DNA of 62,430 nt, counting the filler, from Rhabdomonas costata (Eukaryota), in assembly GCA_019059605.1 (NCBI GenBank). It is 19 parts of 19 records of this genome, joined end to end, with 100 filler letters (N's around TTAATTAATTAA, not from the genome) between each part and the next. Parts side by side here need not be neighbours in the genome. Positions count along the whole stretch, not along the records: positions 16,538 to 19,718 come from JAHMHO010001210.1; 18 more parts are not named here. One strand, 5' to 3'. The position numbers and the translations under genes were made by a program. Under the pieces are notes generated by a model. That model was not told the origin of the DNA, made no database searches, and saw only the letters and a program-made list of their open reading frames with translations. Positions 15,784 to 62,430 of the stretch are shown piece after piece (within the stretch, counting starts at the first letter, position 1; each line of letters opens with the position of its first letter).

Positions 15784-16592
15784 GTGTTGTCGGAGTGCCG
15801 TGTTCGGCCGTTTTTTCAGTTTGATTTATATTCATTAAACGTTTGCCCAACCTCCACGTGAAGTTGTTGATTCATACACATTCATGCATGTTCAATAGTA
15901 ACTTCACGAAGAAAGTTGTCAAAGGGTGCCGATCGTTTCATCCCTTTTGGCTGTCACCCGCGTTGCGTTCGTTTACCCATGCTTTGGGCGTCACCGCCGT
16001 CCATTGTGATGATGCATACAATTTGCACAAGGCACACAAGATACGCTCTTCAGCTCACAGAGGGTGTGGAACATCCCTTGAACCTAGAAAACACAAAGAA
16101 GAAAGTTGTGGTGAGCCGCAAGGGTGCTGAAGCGCGTTGTGGACTCGGGGAAACCCAAGGGCACAGCGCGATCACACTCACTTGGCTGCCCCACCAGCGT
16201 GAACCCGGCCACCACCACAGAGCTGCCCAGCTTGAGATGAGGCGACTGGCCCTGCAAGGGGCACCGCGCGCGCAGGCCTGCAGTGTAGTTAAAGCTGCAG
16301 CTGAAGTCCAGGAGGGTTTCCGAGCACAGGGACTGCCGCAAAGCATGCACCTGGTGCGCGACTCCAGGCATCAGTGCAAGGGAGGGAAACCGGCACCTGT
16401 AGGACCCTGTAAACGGAGCGAACAGAGACACACACCCNNNNNNNNNNNNNNNNNNNNNNNNNNNNNNNNNNNNNNNNNNNNTTAATTAATTAANNNNNNN
16501 NNNNNNNNNNNNNNNNNNNNNNNNNNNNNNNNNNNNNGTTGGTGTTGCTCAGGGCGATAAGGACACAAAAGCAAGACCAGAGAAGGAGATAT

Positions 16593-16678
16593 AAAAGCTC
16601 TGAGCCGGCTTTCCCCTTGCCGGCAGGAAAAAAGCCGAATGGGGTGTCCACCGAAAAAATGATTACACTCAGTAATGG
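16593..16678 (-). ncRNA. Candidate spliced-leader (SL) RNA gene or pseudogene
   Basis: Minus strand reads CCATTACTGAGTGTAATCATTTTTTCG|GTGGACACCC. It shares CTGAGTGT and TTTTTTCG with the Euglena gracilis SL (ACTTTCTGAGTGTCTATTTTTTTTCG, recalled from memory). A GT donor, a hairpin (16606-16637) and a T-run follow. A second copy lies at 62387-62413. Confidence 0.6.
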
Positions 16679-19600
16679 GAAAAATGGAAAAACACGCAAT
16701 ACTGTACAAACCAGGGGCAACAAGTGGATGAGGGGATGAAAGGCGCAATGCAACGCAAGGGTACTCGAACCGAGGTGCGTGTTGTGGCCACTGCGCAGCA
16801 CGTGTGCAAGGAAAAGAAACAGCCATTCAAAAGAACTGTGTTGTGTCAAAGGTGGTGCGTTGTCCAGCCATGATTTGTCTCACAAGATAGATGAGGGAAG
16901 AATGATCGGGTGGAGAGAAAATCGGCATAAAATGATGATGAAGTCAAAAAGAGTGCAAGGGTGTCAAGCGGTAGGGTGATGGTAAACGAACTTCGTAAGT
17001 TTGACGAGTGGAAGGTAGGGCATTAGTCTGTGTAAATGACATACTCCGAGTTATCAGACCGGTTGGCATCCGGAGTTCCACGGCGGCGACCTACCAAGTA
17101 GGCCGGGCTCAGCGGCACCATGGCTGGCTGGCGGGGGCCGTGGAGCTCAAAAGCCCATGACGTTTGAAAAGACGACGACATCGTTAAGCAGCTTGAACGG
17201 CTAAATTTGTGGTCTAGAAAATCAATGAAAATGTAACAGCAAATAAAAAGAAGGGAAAGGGAAAAAGGCATGGACGCACAATGATTGCCTGTTTCCGTGT
17301 GTAGTACGACATGGCAACTACACAATAAGAAGATATCTAATTCTGGAGTTGCACCAACAAAATGCCACGACAGACAGCACAGATAAAAGAGAAACCAAGG
17401 TGATAGTATGTCAGGAGTGGTTTGTGGTTTACATTGAGAGGCAGAGGCTCAATGCAAGGGGTGAGGTGTGTTCTGGAACTCGGATAGTGGTTGCACACCA
17501 GGTTGTGCTGGGTGTATTTCGGCAATTGGTGTAAGTACAATGGTTTCGCTTTTTGTGGCGTATCGGATGTTGCCTTGCAATGAACTACTCGTCGTAATCA
17601 AAGAAATTTGTGGGAAACAAGTGATTGCGGTTGTGAGTAGGGATAATGAGATGAACAACAGTCAATTTGTTCACGTTGATAGGTGGAACATAATATTCGA
17701 GGACGGCGTAACCACGGAAGCGGTGATCCACACTGAAGCTGAAAAAATGGAGTTGGATGTCTAAGTGAAGCTGGTGTTTTTGAGAGCAGGTAATTATTTA
17801 CTACCATTTCAACTTTTTATTTCAAGAGCGTTGGGTGGTGTGGATTGTGCAGGGTGTGGTTCCAAGAGCAAATTTAGAGAGGTGTGACACGGAGTGGTGG
17901 CCACCGTTGGTTGACAAGAATTGTGGTGAGACTGTTTACCGTTGGTTGCGCGGAAAGGATGCAGTCCTCCAAGTTGAATTATAGCGAGCCTGGCTCTGTT
18001 AAAGTCAGTTAGTATTGGGAAAGACTGTGTGGAAATGAGATCGAGGTCATGGACTGGTTCAACAGAGAGTTAGCAGAGTTTCAAGACATGCAGCATGGAT
18101 ATGAAGTGGTGAGATACACGAGGCTGGCGCAATTGGAACAGTGTGGATCATGTAATTAAAGCAGCTAAACTGTGTAATCAGCTTCCAACGTATTCAAAAA
18201 GAAATGGACACAGTTGACACAGCGAGAGCGGTCGATGACAACCATCGTAGAGGTAGCAGAGAAAGAGTTGCATAGGTTAGTGGACACGTTGCTATAATAC
18301 AGAGCACTTGCAACCGATGAAGCACAGGTTCGCGAGCAACTGGGGGTCCAGTTGTTAAGTCAAGTTGTGTGTCAGTGTTGTTGTTGCAGATGGTGACCAA
18401 GATAGTTGAGAGATGTTCAGCAAACCTCGCCACAGAGCCATTTAGAGTTGCTTGCAGATAAAAATACGCTAGATGCAGTGGCGAAATGTTTAGACTAGAC
18501 CACTTCTGGTGTGTGTCATGATGCTAATGCATACTGGAAGGCTCAAGAGGAGTTGTCTAGTTGTGTGGTTATGTGATGAAGTGGCCAAAAAAGACAAGAG
18601 GGTACATTGCCTGCATATTTTTACCTTCATCCAGAGGCGGGTGAGACAGCAACTCCACGAGTGGTTATGATGCAAATGTGGACTATTGGCATATTCAGTC
18701 GCAATCCAGGCAACAATTTGGCATGTAGGTATCGAAGATTGAAGTTCGAACGTGGCGGAGTCACCCTTGGGTAAAGAACAACAAAACGGTGATCGGCTGC
18801 CAGCACCGAGAGTAATTGGGATGATGACAGAAGATGTTGAGGCAGTGGTCCACCAAGCTATGCAAGCTGCACAAGAAACAGGGAATGCTGTTGTGATACC
18901 AACCCCAGTGACTAGCTTGTTTAACACGGTACTAAGTGTGACAGAGGAATCAGGGTCAGGACTCTTAGTGCAACCATCAGTGATCGTAATTAGTTGTATA
19001 GTGGAAATCATACAGGCGCAGATAGTGGTCAACGAGAGAATCCTTGTGCACTTTTTGGAGCGGATACACAAAATGACCCACCGTGTGTTTTACTAGAGCT
19101 AAACCAAAGTCATAACTCGCCATGTTTTTTTTGTTCAGAAGCCATGTAAAGAAGTTAGGGAGTCGTTTTTGGTTTCTGTGGGAAAAACTAAAGCTTGATA
19201 TGAAGAGGCTGTTGACAATTCGGAGAATTATCACTCCAGAAAAGATGGTCTACTACATGGAAGACAACAAGCAGTACGCAAAAATGGCTGAGAATTTTTC
19301 GTACCCGAATGTGCATTGGATCACGAGAATGTTGAGACGTGGGAGTTCAGGTGCGCAAAAATGAATCAGGTGCGTGTGCTGTATTGGTTGACAATGCAAG
19401 AGGCAAGGGAGAAAATAGACTCCCATCCATACCAGTGGTGTTGGAGGCTCTGCTACTTGTCGTACATGACATATGTAAGTACGATTTGTAAATTATGGAT
19501 AAACAAAACGGAGCTGTTTGAAATGATGAGGAAGCAGTGAGGTGGTTTGAAGAGAGATGACCGTATGGTTCTTACAAGTGGGTGATGCAGCTGTTGATAC

Positions 19601-20953
19601 CTTCTTGCATTCATGAGTATTTACTGACCACAAAAATTGCGTTCAGTATGTACGCAGCATGTAAAGCCGTGAAGAGTCTGATTGTGATCATGGCGGAGAA
19701 GAAACATTCCCAAACAAANNNNNNNNNNNNNNNNNNNNNNNNNNNNNNNNNNNNNNNNNNNNTTAATTAATTAANNNNNNNNNNNNNNNNNNNNNNNNNN
19801 NNNNNNNNNNNNNNNNNNGGTGTGGTTTTTGGACTCAGTACTTCGTCAATTAGTAATTAGTGCAAACTTTCCTGTTTTCTGCTGGTTTTCTGGAGAGTCC
19901 TGCTGGTGAAGCGTTGACTTTGGCGACCATTGTTCTTTCGTGTGAAACAGCAGAGTAATACAGCATGCTGAGGTGGAAAAAGCCCATGCACACTGCCGCT
20001 GGGACGTTCGCGGATACAAGTAAACTGTTTGGGGGGTGGGGTTGAGCTGAAACTCCACCCCCGTGAAAAACCCTTGTGGTTCACGTTCGTTGAACAGTTG
20101 TTGCCGTGCATTGTCTTGTAGCGCACACGTTTTCCTCTGTTTTTCGGTTCCATTGGTGAAAATTACTGGTTGTTTCGTCGACCCCAGCTTTTTGTAGCAG
20201 TTTTGAGAGAAAAGGGTAGGTAACTTTGCTAAATAAATAACACTCGTGCATTTGCCAGTCATTTCTCGAACAACTGTGCCTGCACACTTTCCTGCTTAGT
20301 TGATTATTTTGAACGTGGTCGGCTCGAGTCTTTCAAAAGAAATTTGTATCTTTCCTGAAAACAAACTCAAAACTGTGCGAAATGTGGGGATGTGTCAAAA
20401 CACACCTTACAAGATTACAGGGTTGCGGATGTCTGGGAGCAAACTACAGTGCAGGGATGCAGATGTTAAAAAGCGCGTAAGTGGGGTGGGGATGCTGAAA
20501 AAATTACTTAGGGGTCTACAGTGCAGGATGCACATTTTAAAAAGCTCCAGAGGTGCACACACATGTGTCAAACTTGAGGGCATGGACTCTACGTGAACGC
20601 CGCGAGTGTGCGAGAGGCCTCTGGACACAACTATCCCCAGGAGGGGAAATCCCACTACTGCGGTTTCGAGTCTACGGAACACGTCTAGCGGCACGTCTGT
20701 ACACTCCTCTCTCCTCCTTCCTCCCTGTCCGCTTTACTATCCTCAAGACGTCTGGGGGCTTCCTCCAAGCTAATATATAGCTGATCAATTGTCGAATACA
20801 AAGCGAAAGATAAATATTTAAATTTGGGGAAACAGAGCAAACACAAGTCCGGGCGCATATTTGCATGTCCTACTTTTGGTTCTGTTATTGTTGTTCGTCT
20901 TTTCCGAGTGTCACGGTAATTCAATGAAAATAATTTTAACGCACAGGTATTTA

Positions 20954-22713: not shown

Positions 22714-23771
22714 CGCAGCCCAACGGCTTCTCAAAACAGGTCGCAGGGTGTCGCATTGGTGTTGGTGAGACTGAAAGAGAAATGTGTGGAAGTCGGTGTG
22801 AGTCAGAGTGGCGTCAACGCGGACATTTCTTTTGAAGAAAGCATTTCGACAACAACACCTACAGCAACGCCACAAGCCTCCAGCACACAGGAGTTACGGA
22901 GGAAAGGTACCCCAAAAGAAAACGTCCAGTTTCCTTCGGAAACTTCAGTTTATCCAACAGGGCACAAAGCATCACAGCAACAAGGCCGAGGGTCAGACAC
23001 CACAACNNNNNNNNNNNNNNNNNNNNNNNNNNNNNNNNNNNNNNNNNNNNTTAATTAATTAANNNNNNNNNNNNNNNNNNNNNNNNNNNNNNNNNNNNNN
23101 NNNNNNGTGTGTGTTTTTTTTTTGTGTATGTGTGTCGCCGGCGTCGATGTGTGGGAGTGCGGGAGTGTGCCCGGCAATGCAAATGGGTTGTCACTCGAGG
23201 GATTGAAGAGTGATGTTGCCAACACCTTGGATCGCCATTGGACCATCATTGTTATGTGCACGTAAAGTGTGATGCCTTCCGCAGTAGGGACACCGACGTG
23301 AGTTGCTGACTGCTGGCTCTATACACTAGTGCCACTGGTAACCATGCAACGTCAGCAATGTCTGCAAAAGTGACACCCCCGCTATGTACAGTGTTGAAGC
23401 AGCACCTGTGTGCCAGAAATCCATACTGCCAAAACATTGCACCTGGGAGGGGAGTGAGGGAGGGGGAGAAATGTTGATGACTTCGCTATTTTCTTGTAGG
23501 GAAGTACATACTCTGGTCTATAAGGTTGTTACAGCTTAAACTCAGGGTCCTTATTCCTCAGCTCTGTTCACGCGGAAAAACGCCTCATGCGTATCCACAA
23601 TTTGGGAGCGTTCCCAGGTTCAATGGGAAGAGCATACTAAACGGTGAGTTTTGGATTGAAACTACCTTATGACATGGACCAGAACCTCAAGAAATCTCTT
23701 TTGGAGAGTTTGTGCAAACCGCTTGGAGGCACTGTGCCTGTGGATTTGGAGATGTATCCCGTCCTGCTCAG

Positions 23772-25701
23772 CTCACGGGGATCATCGGGCTTGCCGAGCT
23801 GTTGACCCTGACCCCTCTGAGTGGGATTCAGAGGCAGTACACGACCTCCATTGGGCTGTGCGGGAAGTCCCTGCTCAGCGTGGTCAACGACGTGCTGACC
23901 TTCGCTAAGCTGGAGGCTTCGAAGCTCAGCCTGGAGAGCCGGTGGTTTGACCTCCGGAGGTGCGTGGAGAGCGCCGTGGCGGTGTTGCGGGGGGGCGACC
24001 TCACAGCAAAGCCCGTGGAGCTGGTGGTGGAGATCCCCCACACCATCCCCGCCGCGGTGCTGGGGGACGAGACCAGGCTGAGCCAAGTGCTAATCAAGTG
24101 TGCTCTGTCCTTGTGTCCTCGAAGCCGTTTTCCCCCTGAGGCGTTGCTGGGAAGCGGTGAGGTGAATTTTGTTTGGGATGGTTTCAATTGAGCCGCGCTG
24201 TCCCCTTGACTTCTCCTTGACAGAGGAATCGTTGCTTTTGGATGCAGTCCAAGCAACCAGCCCTTTTCCCGCGCTCCCGCGCGGGATATGGTCTACTGCA
24301 CCTTTTTCCCAAAATTCAAAACCTGTGACTTCCAACAAACTGGCTGAATCGCGCAGTAAATCTATATACCCATGCACTTTTTTCTCTAAAAGCTTGCTGA
24401 ACAATGCCTTCAAGTTCACCAGCGAAGGGCTGATCACTCTGTATCTTGAGCACCGCTCCTTCCAGAGGTTCGGCCTCCCAGCCGACGGTTGCCTAACCGC
24501 GTCTCCAGTCTCGCGACAATCCAGGTCTACCCGCGACGGCCCAGACCCTGAATTTGGTCTTGTTCCAGCCGCACGTGCAGTCAACACGACTGCCCGGAGC
24601 GTGGGAAGGATGGAGCAGGCTATTGTGTTCCACGTTCGAGACACCGGGCTGGGCCTCACCGCGGAGCAGAAGGAGCGCCTTTTTCAGCCTTTCAGTCAGG
24701 CCGATGTCTCCACGACTCGGCAGTTTGGGGGTACGGGTCTGGGCCTCAGCATCTGCAAGCAGTTGTCAGAGCTTTGGAATGGGGAGATTGGCGTCGAGAG
24801 CGATGGCCTGGGGAAGGGGTGTCATTTTTGGGTTGCTGTCCCGCTGTGCCCCTCGTCTGGGGTTGCTTGGGAGCATTCCATTTCCATCCAGGTGCCGGAG
24901 CCGCCACGGCTGCCTGGTGCAGTAGCCGTGATTGACGGGTTCCCTTTTCGAGAACGCGCAACCCGAGAGCTCTTCCAATGTTTCAGTTCTCGGGTAGAAA
25001 TTTTTCCCGACGCTGCTGGTCTATCTGTCGCTCGGCTGGCGCAGTACTCCCTTCTTGCGGTTTTTCCTGGCTCTGACTCCGCGCAATGGCCCGCGCTGCG
25101 AGGCCAGCTCTCAGCGATGCTGAAAACCCCTTGTGAGCAGCTCCGTGTGTTGGGCTTTGTGAGTATGGGGGAGCTAAAGAAGGCCGAGGAGCTATTCGGG
25201 TTCCCTGTGTATCCTAAGCCTGCGACATTTGCTCAAGTTGAAGAGTTCCTGAAAAGTTCTCAGAGCCCGGCAGCCCACCCCCGGGAAACAATCACAGACT
25301 GCTCCGAGAGCGCCATAGAGACTTCCTTTCAGCTTCCCAGGAGAGTGCTGATTGCCGAGGATATCCAGCTTAACCAGCTGGTGTTCACGCAGATGCTGAA
25401 GCAGTGGGGCATTCACTGCGACACAGCGGACAATGGCCTGCAGGCGGTCTCGATGTGCGCCCAAAACGCTTATGAGGCGGTGTTTATGGACTGCCATATG
25501 CCATTATGTAACGGCTTTGAAGCCACTCGGAGAATTCGCCAACTTCCAGGCTACGGCAGTATTCCGATTATCGCCCTGACGGCGGCCACGACGGAGGATG
25601 ACCAGGTGGCTTGCGAGCAATGCGGAATGACGCACTTCCTAGCAAAGCCGGCAACACTTGCCACCATGCGGGCCGTGCTGGAGCAGATTTCGATGATATG
25701 A
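23772..25701 (+). CDS. Hybrid sensor histidine kinase/response regulator, 3' exons (23772-24097, 24393-25701)
   Basis: HisKA second half ([11 protein letters not shown]...[16 protein letters not shown]); [21 protein letters not shown] across a phase-2 intron; [15 protein letters not shown] and GGTGLGL boxes; receiver motifs LIAED, FMDCHMP, ALTA and LAKP. The H-box exon was not found in this contig. Confidence 0.95.
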
Positions 25702-38600: not shown

Positions 38601-39974
38601 ATTTGTCGTTAATCCCACGTCCAGTTGATGTGCAATGTGGGTGCAAGCACGAAATACTGGGCCAGGGCCTCCGTATGTGCGTGCCAGGCGGTAGAGGTAT
38701 ATGCATGAAGCTGTACAAATAGGTCGGAAAGTCATGTCGGTGGTTCTGCCATATGAGAGCTACTGTTGGAAGTAGAGGAGGATTCCACGCATTAAGAGGC
38801 AACGAAGCCCCGCAGCAGGTTCAGGCACGAGCTAAAACCATAATCAATGTCAGAAGTACCGTAAGGACATACGGCCGAGGTTGATCCGCACTCGTCCAGT
38901 GGTATAGATTGGATGAGAAAAGCATGGCGTCCACAGGATCCTGGCGGTAAATCCAAAGGTGAAAATCCCGAGAGTACGCAACGGAAATGAGACGACACTC
39001 ATCCTGCGTAAGAGCTGAGGGTTCAGATTCAGTGGAGCCTTGAGACCACGTCAATCATGACACAATACGCACAGTGTGTCTTCTGGAGCTTGTAAGATGG
39101 CAGCTTCTGTTTTGACAAGCACCACAAAGTGACGTCAATTACTGGATAAAGCCCTCGCAGACCAGAGAGACAAACAGGTTAACCGCTGGCATGCCGAGGA
39201 GAAATGCGCAGGCCACTAGAACACCTGAAGGGAACAAAAATGTCAGTATGCATGGTCCGGAACAACTGAAAATGAGGAATAGCGCAGCAATAGAACCGAC
39301 AGAATCTCAATAAAATACAAGAGGTTTTCTTTACAATGGTTTACCACAAGTGTCCGCCAAGACCAAAGTCATGAATACAATAAACGCATCGAGAGTTAGC
39401 CAATTAGGTGTGGTACATTTGCGAGAAAGTACACGTCCAGTCCAAAGCATATAGAANNNNNNNNNNNNNNNNNNNNNNNNNNNNNNNNNNNNNNNNNNNN
39501 TTAATTAATTAANNNNNNNNNNNNNNNNNNNNNNNNNNNNNNNNNNNNNNNNNNNNTGTTTTGTGTGGCAGGATTCAATCTTGTCCGATCCCACGACAAC
39601 AGTTCCGCCGCGTTTCCCCCAAAATGGACCATTCTTTGGCTTTTCGGGGACAGCATTTGTCTGGCTTTTGTTGTATATTGTTTTAGTGCTCGAGCGCATT
39701 TGGGGTAATGTGATGGTCGCCTTTTCCTTACCTCTGAATCTCATTCTGAGTATTCTGCTGGGTGTATCGCAGCTTTGAGCGCATGTTTTCATTTGATCTC
39801 AATCCATCCAGTTCGTCGAATGGTAGAAACAGGAATTTCTCCCTGCTGTCTGCCTGCGGCGTGAACTTTCCCGTTTTCGCGACTTTGTTGACGCGTCGAT
39901 TGTCTCAATAAGGACGCTGTTTGTCGCAAAGCGACGACTTGTAATCGAGAATGTTCCTCACCACACTCAAACAG

Positions 39975-40541
39975 GTGTATCGCTTCCGACATGAGCAGCT
40001 GCAGCAGGACTACCTTCAGCGCCAGAGCATAATGCTGGCAGAGAAGTCCCAGGCTGCACTGGAGATCGCCCCGGTCAGCCCCGCGGTGACTCTGTGCCCC
40101 GAAGGAATCATCCTAAACCACGACCTGAACGAGGTCTTCCTCTTCCACGGCTGCGACACCAGGATAGTGCCGGGGATCCTGCAGCAGGGCCTCGACCTTC
40201 GCCTAGCCAAGGACGGGCTGTACGGCAGAGGGATCTACTTCGCACAGGAGGCGTGCAAGTCCCTGGCCGACTCCAATGTCGCCAACCTAGACGGGCACCG
40301 ATGTCTGCTGTACTGCCGGGTCACCCTTGGGCTGGTTGCTTATGCCACGGGAAGGTGCGAGGAGCTGAAGCGCCCCCCAGAAACCGGCACCGAGGGGATT
40401 CTGCATGACAGCCTTGTGGTGAACCCGGGGATCTCCACTGGAGTCGGTGGAGCTGCGGGTCTGCAGATCCATCGGGAATTCGTGATCTTTGAGAAGTCTC
40501 AGGCCATTCCGGAGTTCGTGATCTACTTCACATTCCGCTGA
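39975..40541 (+). CDS. PARP catalytic domain (tankyrase-like), final exon
   Basis: NEVFLFHG, GLYGRGIYFA..ACKS, HRCLLYCRVTLG and REFVIFEKSQAIPEFVIY motifs; H-Y-E triad present; phase-0 CAG acceptor at 39972-39974. Confidence 0.92.
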   Translation: MYRFRHEQLQQDYLQRQSIMLAEKSQAALEIAPVSPAVTLCPEGIILNHDLNEVFLFHGCDTRIVPGILQQGLDLRLAKDGLYGRGIYFAQEACKSLADSNVANLDGHRCLLYCRVTLGLVAYATGRCEELKRPPETGTEGILHDSLVVNPGISTGVGGAAGLQIHREFVIFEKSQAIPEFVIYFTFR

Positions 40542-61334: not shown

Positions 61335-62386
61335 GTGTGCGCGTGTGTATTTGGGGGTTGTCCTCGTTTGTATGTGTATGTGTGTGGAGTGTGCTCGTGC
61401 TGCCTTTCTCAGGTTTCAAAGCAATTTGTTTTCACGTGTGGTAATCCTCACTGCAGCGAGTTGAGGATCATCGCTTGGATTCTGCGCACGTGGGTACGTT
61501 TGATTGGGCAAGTAATCGCCCGACACCAGCAAAGGTCGCACACGCGGCAGACTAGCAACTGCCTGAGGACCGTGACAGAAACGGCACATCGGACATGCGC
61601 CATTCTCTAAATCCACATGCACGTACACAAACAGAAGTTTCAGGAACACCATTTGGAAAGGTCACAAGCAAGGTACAGACCCACGATGCCGACAAGGACA
61701 CACGCACGCGCACACACCACAGTAGTTGTGGCAGTGGCAGCCCATTGTTGTGATCGTTGTCTTACGAAGTCTGTAGCGAACCTCACGCACACACTTTGCA
61801 AGCTCTCCCACAACGGTTATGTTGCCTTAGGTCACCTTTGCTGTTGTAGCCTTTGTGCAGGCTGGGAAAAGTGATTAGCATTTCGCATTTTCCTCCTTTT
61901 CTTTTTTGCAATTTCGACCCCTCGGAAAAGTTGTTTTGCCTTTTCGCCGGAGACGCAATTCATCATTCAGACATGAAAATGCTCCTTTTGCACAATGGGG
62001 TGCCTTTTTTTTTACCCCAAGTGGAATTTTTTCCCTTTCGGAACTGGTTTGTGGGCCCCCACGTGACCCCTACCGAAGCAAACGGAAACCCTTCTCAGGC
62101 CCCTAGAATATGATCCTTGTGATGCAGAAACAATGGGCTCGAGACGAAACTTCGACGTGTAATCAAAGTGCGTTGTTTTCTTTCTTTCTTTCCTTCTTTT
62201 GGGCGAAAAGCAAAGCACGGACATTCATCCAGATAGCGGCAATCATTAAAAGAGTGTCCTGCTGTGGCCGTTTTGGAAATTCCGCAAACAATTGACAATA
62301 GAAATGGTGCGGCCTACCCTCTTCAAAAAGACTAATATAATATATGGGTTTGTGCTGGTTTACGGGTGCCAAACCCGAAAAAAAAA

Positions 62387-62413
62387 CCATTACTGAGTGT
62401 AATCATTTTTCCG
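62387..62413 (+). ncRNA. Second SL-exon-like sequence
   Basis: CCATTACTGAGTGTAATCATTTTTCCG matches the reverse complement of 16652-16678 at 26 of 27 positions; the flanks are unrelated. Confidence 0.55.
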
Positions 62414-62430
62414 GGTTTGGCACCCACAAC

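Follow-up and report, generated by a model that had tools for sequence, protein, structure and literature searches.

We read positions 16678–16590 (minus strand) of the stretch analysed here, with considerable confidence, as a spliced-leader (SL) RNA gene copy from a heterotrophic euglenid of the Rhabdomonas type, whether R. costata itself or a near relative; on this reading the A at exon position 10 is most likely the true base of the leader, and the leader sequence at 62387–62413 is a relic. The preliminary description of this DNA had proposed a candidate SL RNA gene with a variant exon, and that proposal is supported by a 25/27 match to the published R. costata leader, a GT splice donor, homology of the adjoining intron and translated leader ends. 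Judged from sequence, the variation is small, amounting to two bases relative to the published leader. Euglenid SL RNA genes and trans-splicing, those of R. costata included, have been known since 1991–2000; with the family known and the leader published in 2000, the existence of an SL RNA gene here is in itself no surprise.

The window, by which we mean the whole stretch of 62,430 nucleotides that was analysed (positions 1–62430), consists of 19 contigs of 3178–3268 nt each, separated by runs of N and a TTAATTAATTAA linker, and amounts to 60.8 kb once the Ns are excluded. Features separated by a linker are not genomic neighbours. The SL RNA gene and its parts are the following, where L005 and L007 are environmental SL RNA genes described below.

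16538–19718: contig carrying the SL RNA gene, 3181 nt; the exon starts 141 nt from the low-coordinate end and points towards that end.
16652–16678, minus strand: SL exon, 27 nt, RNA positions 1–27, defined by the window sequence and the match to the published leader.
16650–16651, minus strand: GT splice donor, directly 3′ of the exon.
16590–16649, minus strand: intron part of the SL RNA, RNA positions 30–89, defined by homology to L007 and L005; together with the GT it makes up the conserved RNA positions 28–89.
16637–16627 and 16616–16606, minus strand: the hairpin of the preliminary description, RNA positions 42–52 with 63–73, which competes with nested helices.
16593–16596, minus strand: T-run, RNA positions 83–86, inside GCUUUUAU, at the end of the conserved unit.

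Other contigs of the window carry protein-coding sequence. A hybrid histidine kinase extends over two frames at 23673–25701 on the plus strand, with HisKA at 23673–24191 and HATPase_c and Response_reg at 24166–25701, an arrangement that suggests an intron or a frameshift between the frames. An open frame at 39945–40541 (plus strand) encodes a PARP catalytic domain (E = 2.5e-15).

The 27-mer first described on the minus strand, followed by GT, is present at 16678–16650. Allowing up to three mismatches, the 27-mer occurs at two sites in the window, 16652–16678 (minus strand, 0 mismatches) and 62387–62413 (plus strand, one mismatch), and separate searches with the two exon halves, again with up to three mismatches, revealed no fragments in the window beyond these two copies. 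None of 100 shuffled windows contained any match to the 27-mer. The R. costata leader published by Frantz et al. (2000), in the form quoted in PMC8219788, is likewise 27 nt long and is identical to the window exon at 25/27 positions; at position 1 the window has C where A was published, and at position 10 A where G was published. The published leader also has the same CATTTTTTCG 3′ end and the same ATTAC/GTAAT self-complement (16676–16672 and 16666–16662 in the window), so the exon hairpin, initially regarded as an oddity of this copy, is not peculiar to it.

In the supplement of PMC8219788, three R. costata proteins begin with CNHFFG or VIIFS, which are translations of the 3′ part of the leader, 15–17 nt in length. 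The leader, through this 3′ part, therefore sits on the 5′ ends of R. costata mRNAs. On these comparisons, which are comparisons of sequence, the exon is the leader of the Rhabdomonas lineage. The E. gracilis leader, as quoted in PMC6242988, resembles the window exon in its CTGAGTGT core and in a T-run ending in CG, but the bases flanking the core differ; the E. gracilis SL RNA likewise has a GT donor, and its exon is 26 nt long as against 27 nt in the window.

By analogy with the SL RNAs of Euglena, kinetoplastids and nematodes, the gene would be transcribed into a capped RNA of ~85–90 nt, the first 27 nt of which the spliceosome would join to pre-mRNAs at their 3′ splice sites, in place of the outrons. 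The T-run at 16596–16593 would, again by analogy, lie at or near the 3′ end of this RNA.

We scanned metagenome contigs with a 21-nt exon pattern that allowed A or G at position 10, and obtained nine matches at eight loci (L001 to L008). In 9/9 matches the pattern continues with TCG, and in 7/9 (L001, L002, L003 twice, L004, L005 and L007) a GT comes next; the leaders of L006 and L008 run on into mRNA-like sequence without a GT. Across six aligned genes, the window gene included, exon positions 3–27 and the GT are invariant. Scanned with the same pattern, viral contigs gave no match and prokaryote genomes gave a single one, at 501–521 of L009, from a Flavobacteriaceae MAG. We rejected L009 as a leader and consider it a chance match, since it has G at the degenerate base and lacks the TCG-GT continuation.

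Likeness between the window gene and its environmental relatives extends past the exon. The 62 nt after the window exon are identical to those of L007 at 44/62 positions and to those of L005 at 38/62, with scores that none of 500 shuffles reached in either comparison; the scores against L004 (37/62) and L001 (32/62) were reached by 9/500 and 48/500 shuffles, respectively. The flanks are far less alike: the scores for the 70 nt upstream and for the 50 nt downstream were reached by 33 to 495 of 500 shuffles, the best being those of the upstream flank against L005 (33/500) and the downstream flank against L007 (38/500). The conserved unit is made up of the exon and ~62 nt, or ~89 nt in total, near the ~85 nt estimated earlier. 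A sequence-only model of the intron (R1), built from the introns of L007, L005 and L004 with the exon and the window excluded, found no match in the window with default filters. With filters off, and over both strands of the 62 kb, its top match was 16650–16590, with a weak score (10.4 bits, E = 0.061; runner-up 5.8 bits); this match covers model positions 2–62 of 65 and lies exactly beside the exon.

Because the exon, the GT and the intron are together homologous to environmental SL RNA genes, the locus is an SL RNA gene and not a stray repeat. The L009 match illustrates that in very large collections a 21-mer such as this can turn up by chance, and one might on that account take the window exon for an ordinary dispersed repeat, or for a fortuitous resemblance, unconnected with trans-splicing. 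We give this explanation practically no credence: L009 lacks the TCG-GT that continues the euglenid-type matches in the proportions given above, and the dispersed-repeat alternative for the 27-mer is refuted by the empty shuffled windows, by the match to the leader quoted in PMC8219788 and by the intron homology.

The relatives fall at different distances from the window gene. L007, L005 and L004 have in common with it exon positions 3–27, the GT donor and the intron start GTGRAC.CC.CC, as well as AGCCG and CAG(A)G blocks and a U-run. They differ from it at exon positions 1–2, which are AC, TG and GG, respectively, as against CC in the window gene, and in their inner hairpins, the sequences of which are unrelated to that of the window gene. 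L001–L003 have the A10 exon and the GT donor of the window gene, and a 5′ ACA as in the published leader, but their intron is barely alignable to the window's; they are laid out as in textbooks, with two hairpins, the canonical Sm site AAUUUUUGA and a hairpin at the 3′ end, an arrangement that the window gene does not have. In L001 (minus strand, RNA positions 58–95) this region consists of a GGAAGC-UCAA-GCUUCC hairpin, the Sm site and an ACCC-GCAA-GGGU hairpin. The comparison shows an invariant exon common to close euglenid lineages and differing SL RNA bodies, one with a textbook Sm site and the other without.

The environmental contigs also show other arrangements of the leader. Positions 636–826 and 880–1070 of L003 form a 191-nt perfect inverted duplication at the contig end, in which the 5′ parts of two SL RNA genes face each other head to head at a distance of 53 nt; the duplication could be real or an assembly artefact. 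L004 holds at 910–928 a second, shortened leader-like sequence, ATTACTGAGTGT followed by TTTCGGT and without the AATCAT part, whose start lies ~66 nt past the donor of the complete SL RNA gene on that contig. L006 is an mRNA-like contig with the leader at its very end, where leader positions 9–19 have an 11-nt perfect complement 24 nt downstream (971–981 versus 1006–1016), so that a 5′-UTR hairpin involving the leader is possible. In L008, a leader without GT (938–964) lies between same-strand open frames at 2–946 and 995–1606, neither of which has a Pfam match; assembly chimerism, retro-copying or a tandem arrangement could account for this leader.

At the level of RNA structure, two pairings had been proposed for the unit. 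The first, between ACACCC and the exon's GAGUGU across the donor, is partial as stated: RNA positions 32–37 can form 5/6 pairs with exon positions 9–14, with a mismatch between A10 and C36. The second, a CGGCTTT...AAAGCCG hairpin, exists but had been given too short, as it comprises 11 consecutive pairs (42–52 with 73–63), three of them U–G. The nested helices of the window RNA are H1 (26–29/70–73), H2 (35–38/63–66) and H3 (41–45/55–59). Independent minimum free energy (MFE) folds of the first 85 nt of the window gene, L007, L005 and L004 gave the same nested three-helix topology in 4/4 cases, with an outer helix that pairs the donor CGGU (26–29) with the conserved (A)GCCG at ~70–73, a middle helix of CC(Y)CC with GG(R)GG, and an inner hairpin whose sequence is different in each of the four genes. 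In the model alignment there is one compensatory exchange in the middle helix, where the window has C–G at intron position 9 and the others U–A. RNAalifold, applied to a MAFFT alignment, prefers a stem of exon positions 4–11 with 24–31 that includes the donor; this stem is invariant, so no covariation signal is possible.

Within the ensemble of the window RNA, the hairpin noted earlier has a core probability of 0.64–0.66 and the nested helices 0.15–0.34, and the MFE of −24.5 kcal/mol changes to −23.9 kcal/mol when that hairpin is enforced. L007 keeps 7/11 pairs at the same hairpin columns. The fold of the 89-nt unit does not exceed that of shuffles in stability (z −0.99), as 34/200 shuffles fold at least as well.

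An Sm-binding site, of the form R-A-U(n)-G-R and placed in single-stranded RNA, is a feature of SL RNAs known from other phyla. No canonical site had been seen in the window gene, and we find the same: no R-U(3–7)-G-R motif lies 150 nt or less from the start of the exon, the nearest candidates being GCUUUUAU (RNA 81–88) and GCUUUUGU (RNA 105–112). The TTTT reported to follow the hairpin was found at 16596–16593, and U-rich stretches with ...UUUUAU...-like motifs lie at a comparable distance in L004, L005 and L007; possible roles for the T-run at 16593–16596 are a transcription stop or a non-canonical Sm-like site. Among the relatives, L001–L003 have the Sm motif, an AUUUUG in L007 is confined to a predicted loop, and L004 and L005 are without the motif. 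Since these last two genes lack it as well, the absence of the motif looks like a trait of the lineage and not like decay.

The gene had been described as solitary, with no tandem array or 5S neighbour, and it is indeed the single SL RNA gene in its 3181-nt contig: no second copy was found in the 3.1 kb upstream, and Rfam at gathering score reported no family, and thus no 5S gene, in the whole window. The eight environmental loci, searched in the same way, gave no family and no 5S gene either, and for the window gene, relaxing the threshold to E up to 10 in a 363-nt region produced three weak unrelated matches and no SL RNA family. Euglenid SL RNA genes are multicopy, frequently arrayed in tandem and in some cases linked to 5S rRNA genes. 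In E. gracilis, SL RNA genes occur in tandem arrays with 5S rRNA genes, according to the title of Keller 1992 as cited in PMC10679874, whereas neither feature is visible within the 3.2 kb in view here. L004 and L005 are likewise isolated: the ~0.6–1 kb of flank on either side contains no further full copy.

A solitary gene with no 5S neighbour and no canonical Sm motif is what one would expect of a silent orphon or pseudogene, that is, a dispersed, once-functional copy of an SL RNA gene whose working counterparts lie elsewhere, perhaps in arrays collapsed by short-read assembly. The A10–C36 mismatch, where the relatives pair, and the C at position 1, where the published leader, L001–L003 and L007 have A, would fit the same explanation. 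We nevertheless hold it to be unlikely, given that nothing is damaged in the exon, in the GT donor or in the first 11 bases of the intron, and that all 62 nt of the intron can be aligned to the relatives. L004 and L005 share both the isolated position and the missing Sm motif (with the AUUUUG of L007 confined to a predicted loop), and A10 and the 5′ CC are common to both copies of the leader in the window.

The second of these copies, and the structure in which it lies, are as follows.

62387–62413, plus strand: exon-only leader copy, 26/27 identical, with T to C at position 25, found by the 27-mer search.
62364–62425, unstranded: 62-nt hairpin enclosing the second copy, with 20-nt arms at 62364–62383 and 62406–62425.

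The 27-mer had been said to recur on another contig with homology ending at the exon edges, and so it does, with one mismatch. The second copy is preceded by A9 and followed by GG instead of GT, and has no intron homology; the 17-mer after it has no other occurrence in the window. Both window copies share CC at the 5′ end. The arms of the surrounding hairpin are 95% complementary and the leader's own ATTAC/GTAAT pair forms its tip, giving a DNA fold of −21.7 kcal/mol (z −5.9) that none of 200 shuffles matched in stability. The contig ends 5 nt past the hairpin and 17 nt past the leader copy. We considered a simple foldback, produced by amplification or assembly, as the source of this hairpin and rejected it, though not fully, as complementarity stops past the 20-nt arms and the arms are imperfect. 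The sequence at 62387–62413 is best read as a putative leader-only relic inside a hairpin, not as a gene, and it may have arisen by retroposition of a spliced RNA.

That the 60.8 kb without Ns contain the leader twice, one of the copies being leader-only and both lying near contig ends, would also be in keeping with an SL-headed retroposed RNA or small mobile element, in which a leader joined by splicing to some RNA is subsequently copied into the genome. An SL-headed small mobile RNA had been among the possibilities raised at the outset. For the copy at 16678, however, such an origin is very improbable: the homology runs on into the intron, the GT and the SL-type intron that a spliced product would have lost are retained, and no poly(A) tract or target-site duplication was seen. 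The preferred reading of that copy accordingly remains an SL RNA gene.

Genes of dinoflagellates carry relic spliced leaders derived from mRNA recycling. Like the second copy, these relics consist of the leader alone, without the SL RNA intron, in ordinary genomic DNA; they are 5′-truncated, whereas the second copy is full length and lies inside a 20-nt inverted repeat. Two copies in 60.8 kb correspond to a Poisson 95% range of 4–119 leaders per Mb. It is conceivable, if rather doubtful, that leaders are scattered through this genome at tens per Mb and that some, like the one within 62364–62425, are DNA copies of trans-spliced RNAs or of SL RNA fragments. If true, this would be a dinoflagellate-like mRNA recycling in Euglenida that makes use of the leader's own ATTAC/GTAAT foldback.

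We return to the base at exon position 10, at which the window exon departs from the published leader. It is A in 9/9 environmental matches, where the pattern allowed G also, in both window copies and, at the equivalent position, in the E. gracilis leader as quoted in PMC6242988; in our scans G appeared only in the bacterial chance match L009. Table S1 of PMC8219788 gives the share of 93,852 R. costata transcripts that have, at one end, n or more bases of the published leader. This share declines smoothly, being 20.2% at n = 7 and 1.615% at n = 17, and is exactly 0 from n = 18 onwards; over the same range, the values for the five other euglenid transcriptomes in the table drop gradually, as in an E. 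gracilis set that goes from 4.93% to 1.33%. The main text gives 17/27 nt as the longest part of the leader found.

The 18th base from the 3′ end of the leader is position 10, and a mismatch between the query and the real leader at this base would explain the cliff at 17 nt. We infer, provided that the transcriptome is from the same strain as the window, that the mismatch of A10 with the published query is what stopped the transcriptome matches at 17 nt. Because A occurs in 9/9 environmental matches and the transcriptome stop falls exactly at position 10, the leader that mRNAs carry probably has A10 as its true base, the published G probably being an exception or outlier.

Peptides that would reveal position 10 (ECNHFF, GCNHFF, SVIIFS and GVIIFS) have 0 occurrences in the available part of the PMC8219788 supplement, in which the leader-derived peptides end short of that position. 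A literature search with the exon 21-mer that includes A10 gave no match, and one with the 17-mer of the exon's 3′ part matched a single paper, PMC8219788; for 11-mers around position 10, there were only unrelated primer lists among the matches listed. In the possible exon–intron helix, A10 of the window gene faces C36, where the relatives have A10–U36 and where the published G would pair with C36. The A10/C36 mismatch could mean that the window gene is a mutated or variant copy, and is the strongest point in favour of that view.

The useful outcome of this analysis is a correction of the leader, the genomic exon having A in place of G at position 10 and starting with C instead of A. By inference, the correction accounts for the fact that the published transcriptome search never exceeded 17/27 leader bases. 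The corrected leader would make it possible to recognise full-length leaders, to mark complete transcript 5′ ends and to estimate the share of mRNAs that are trans-spliced.
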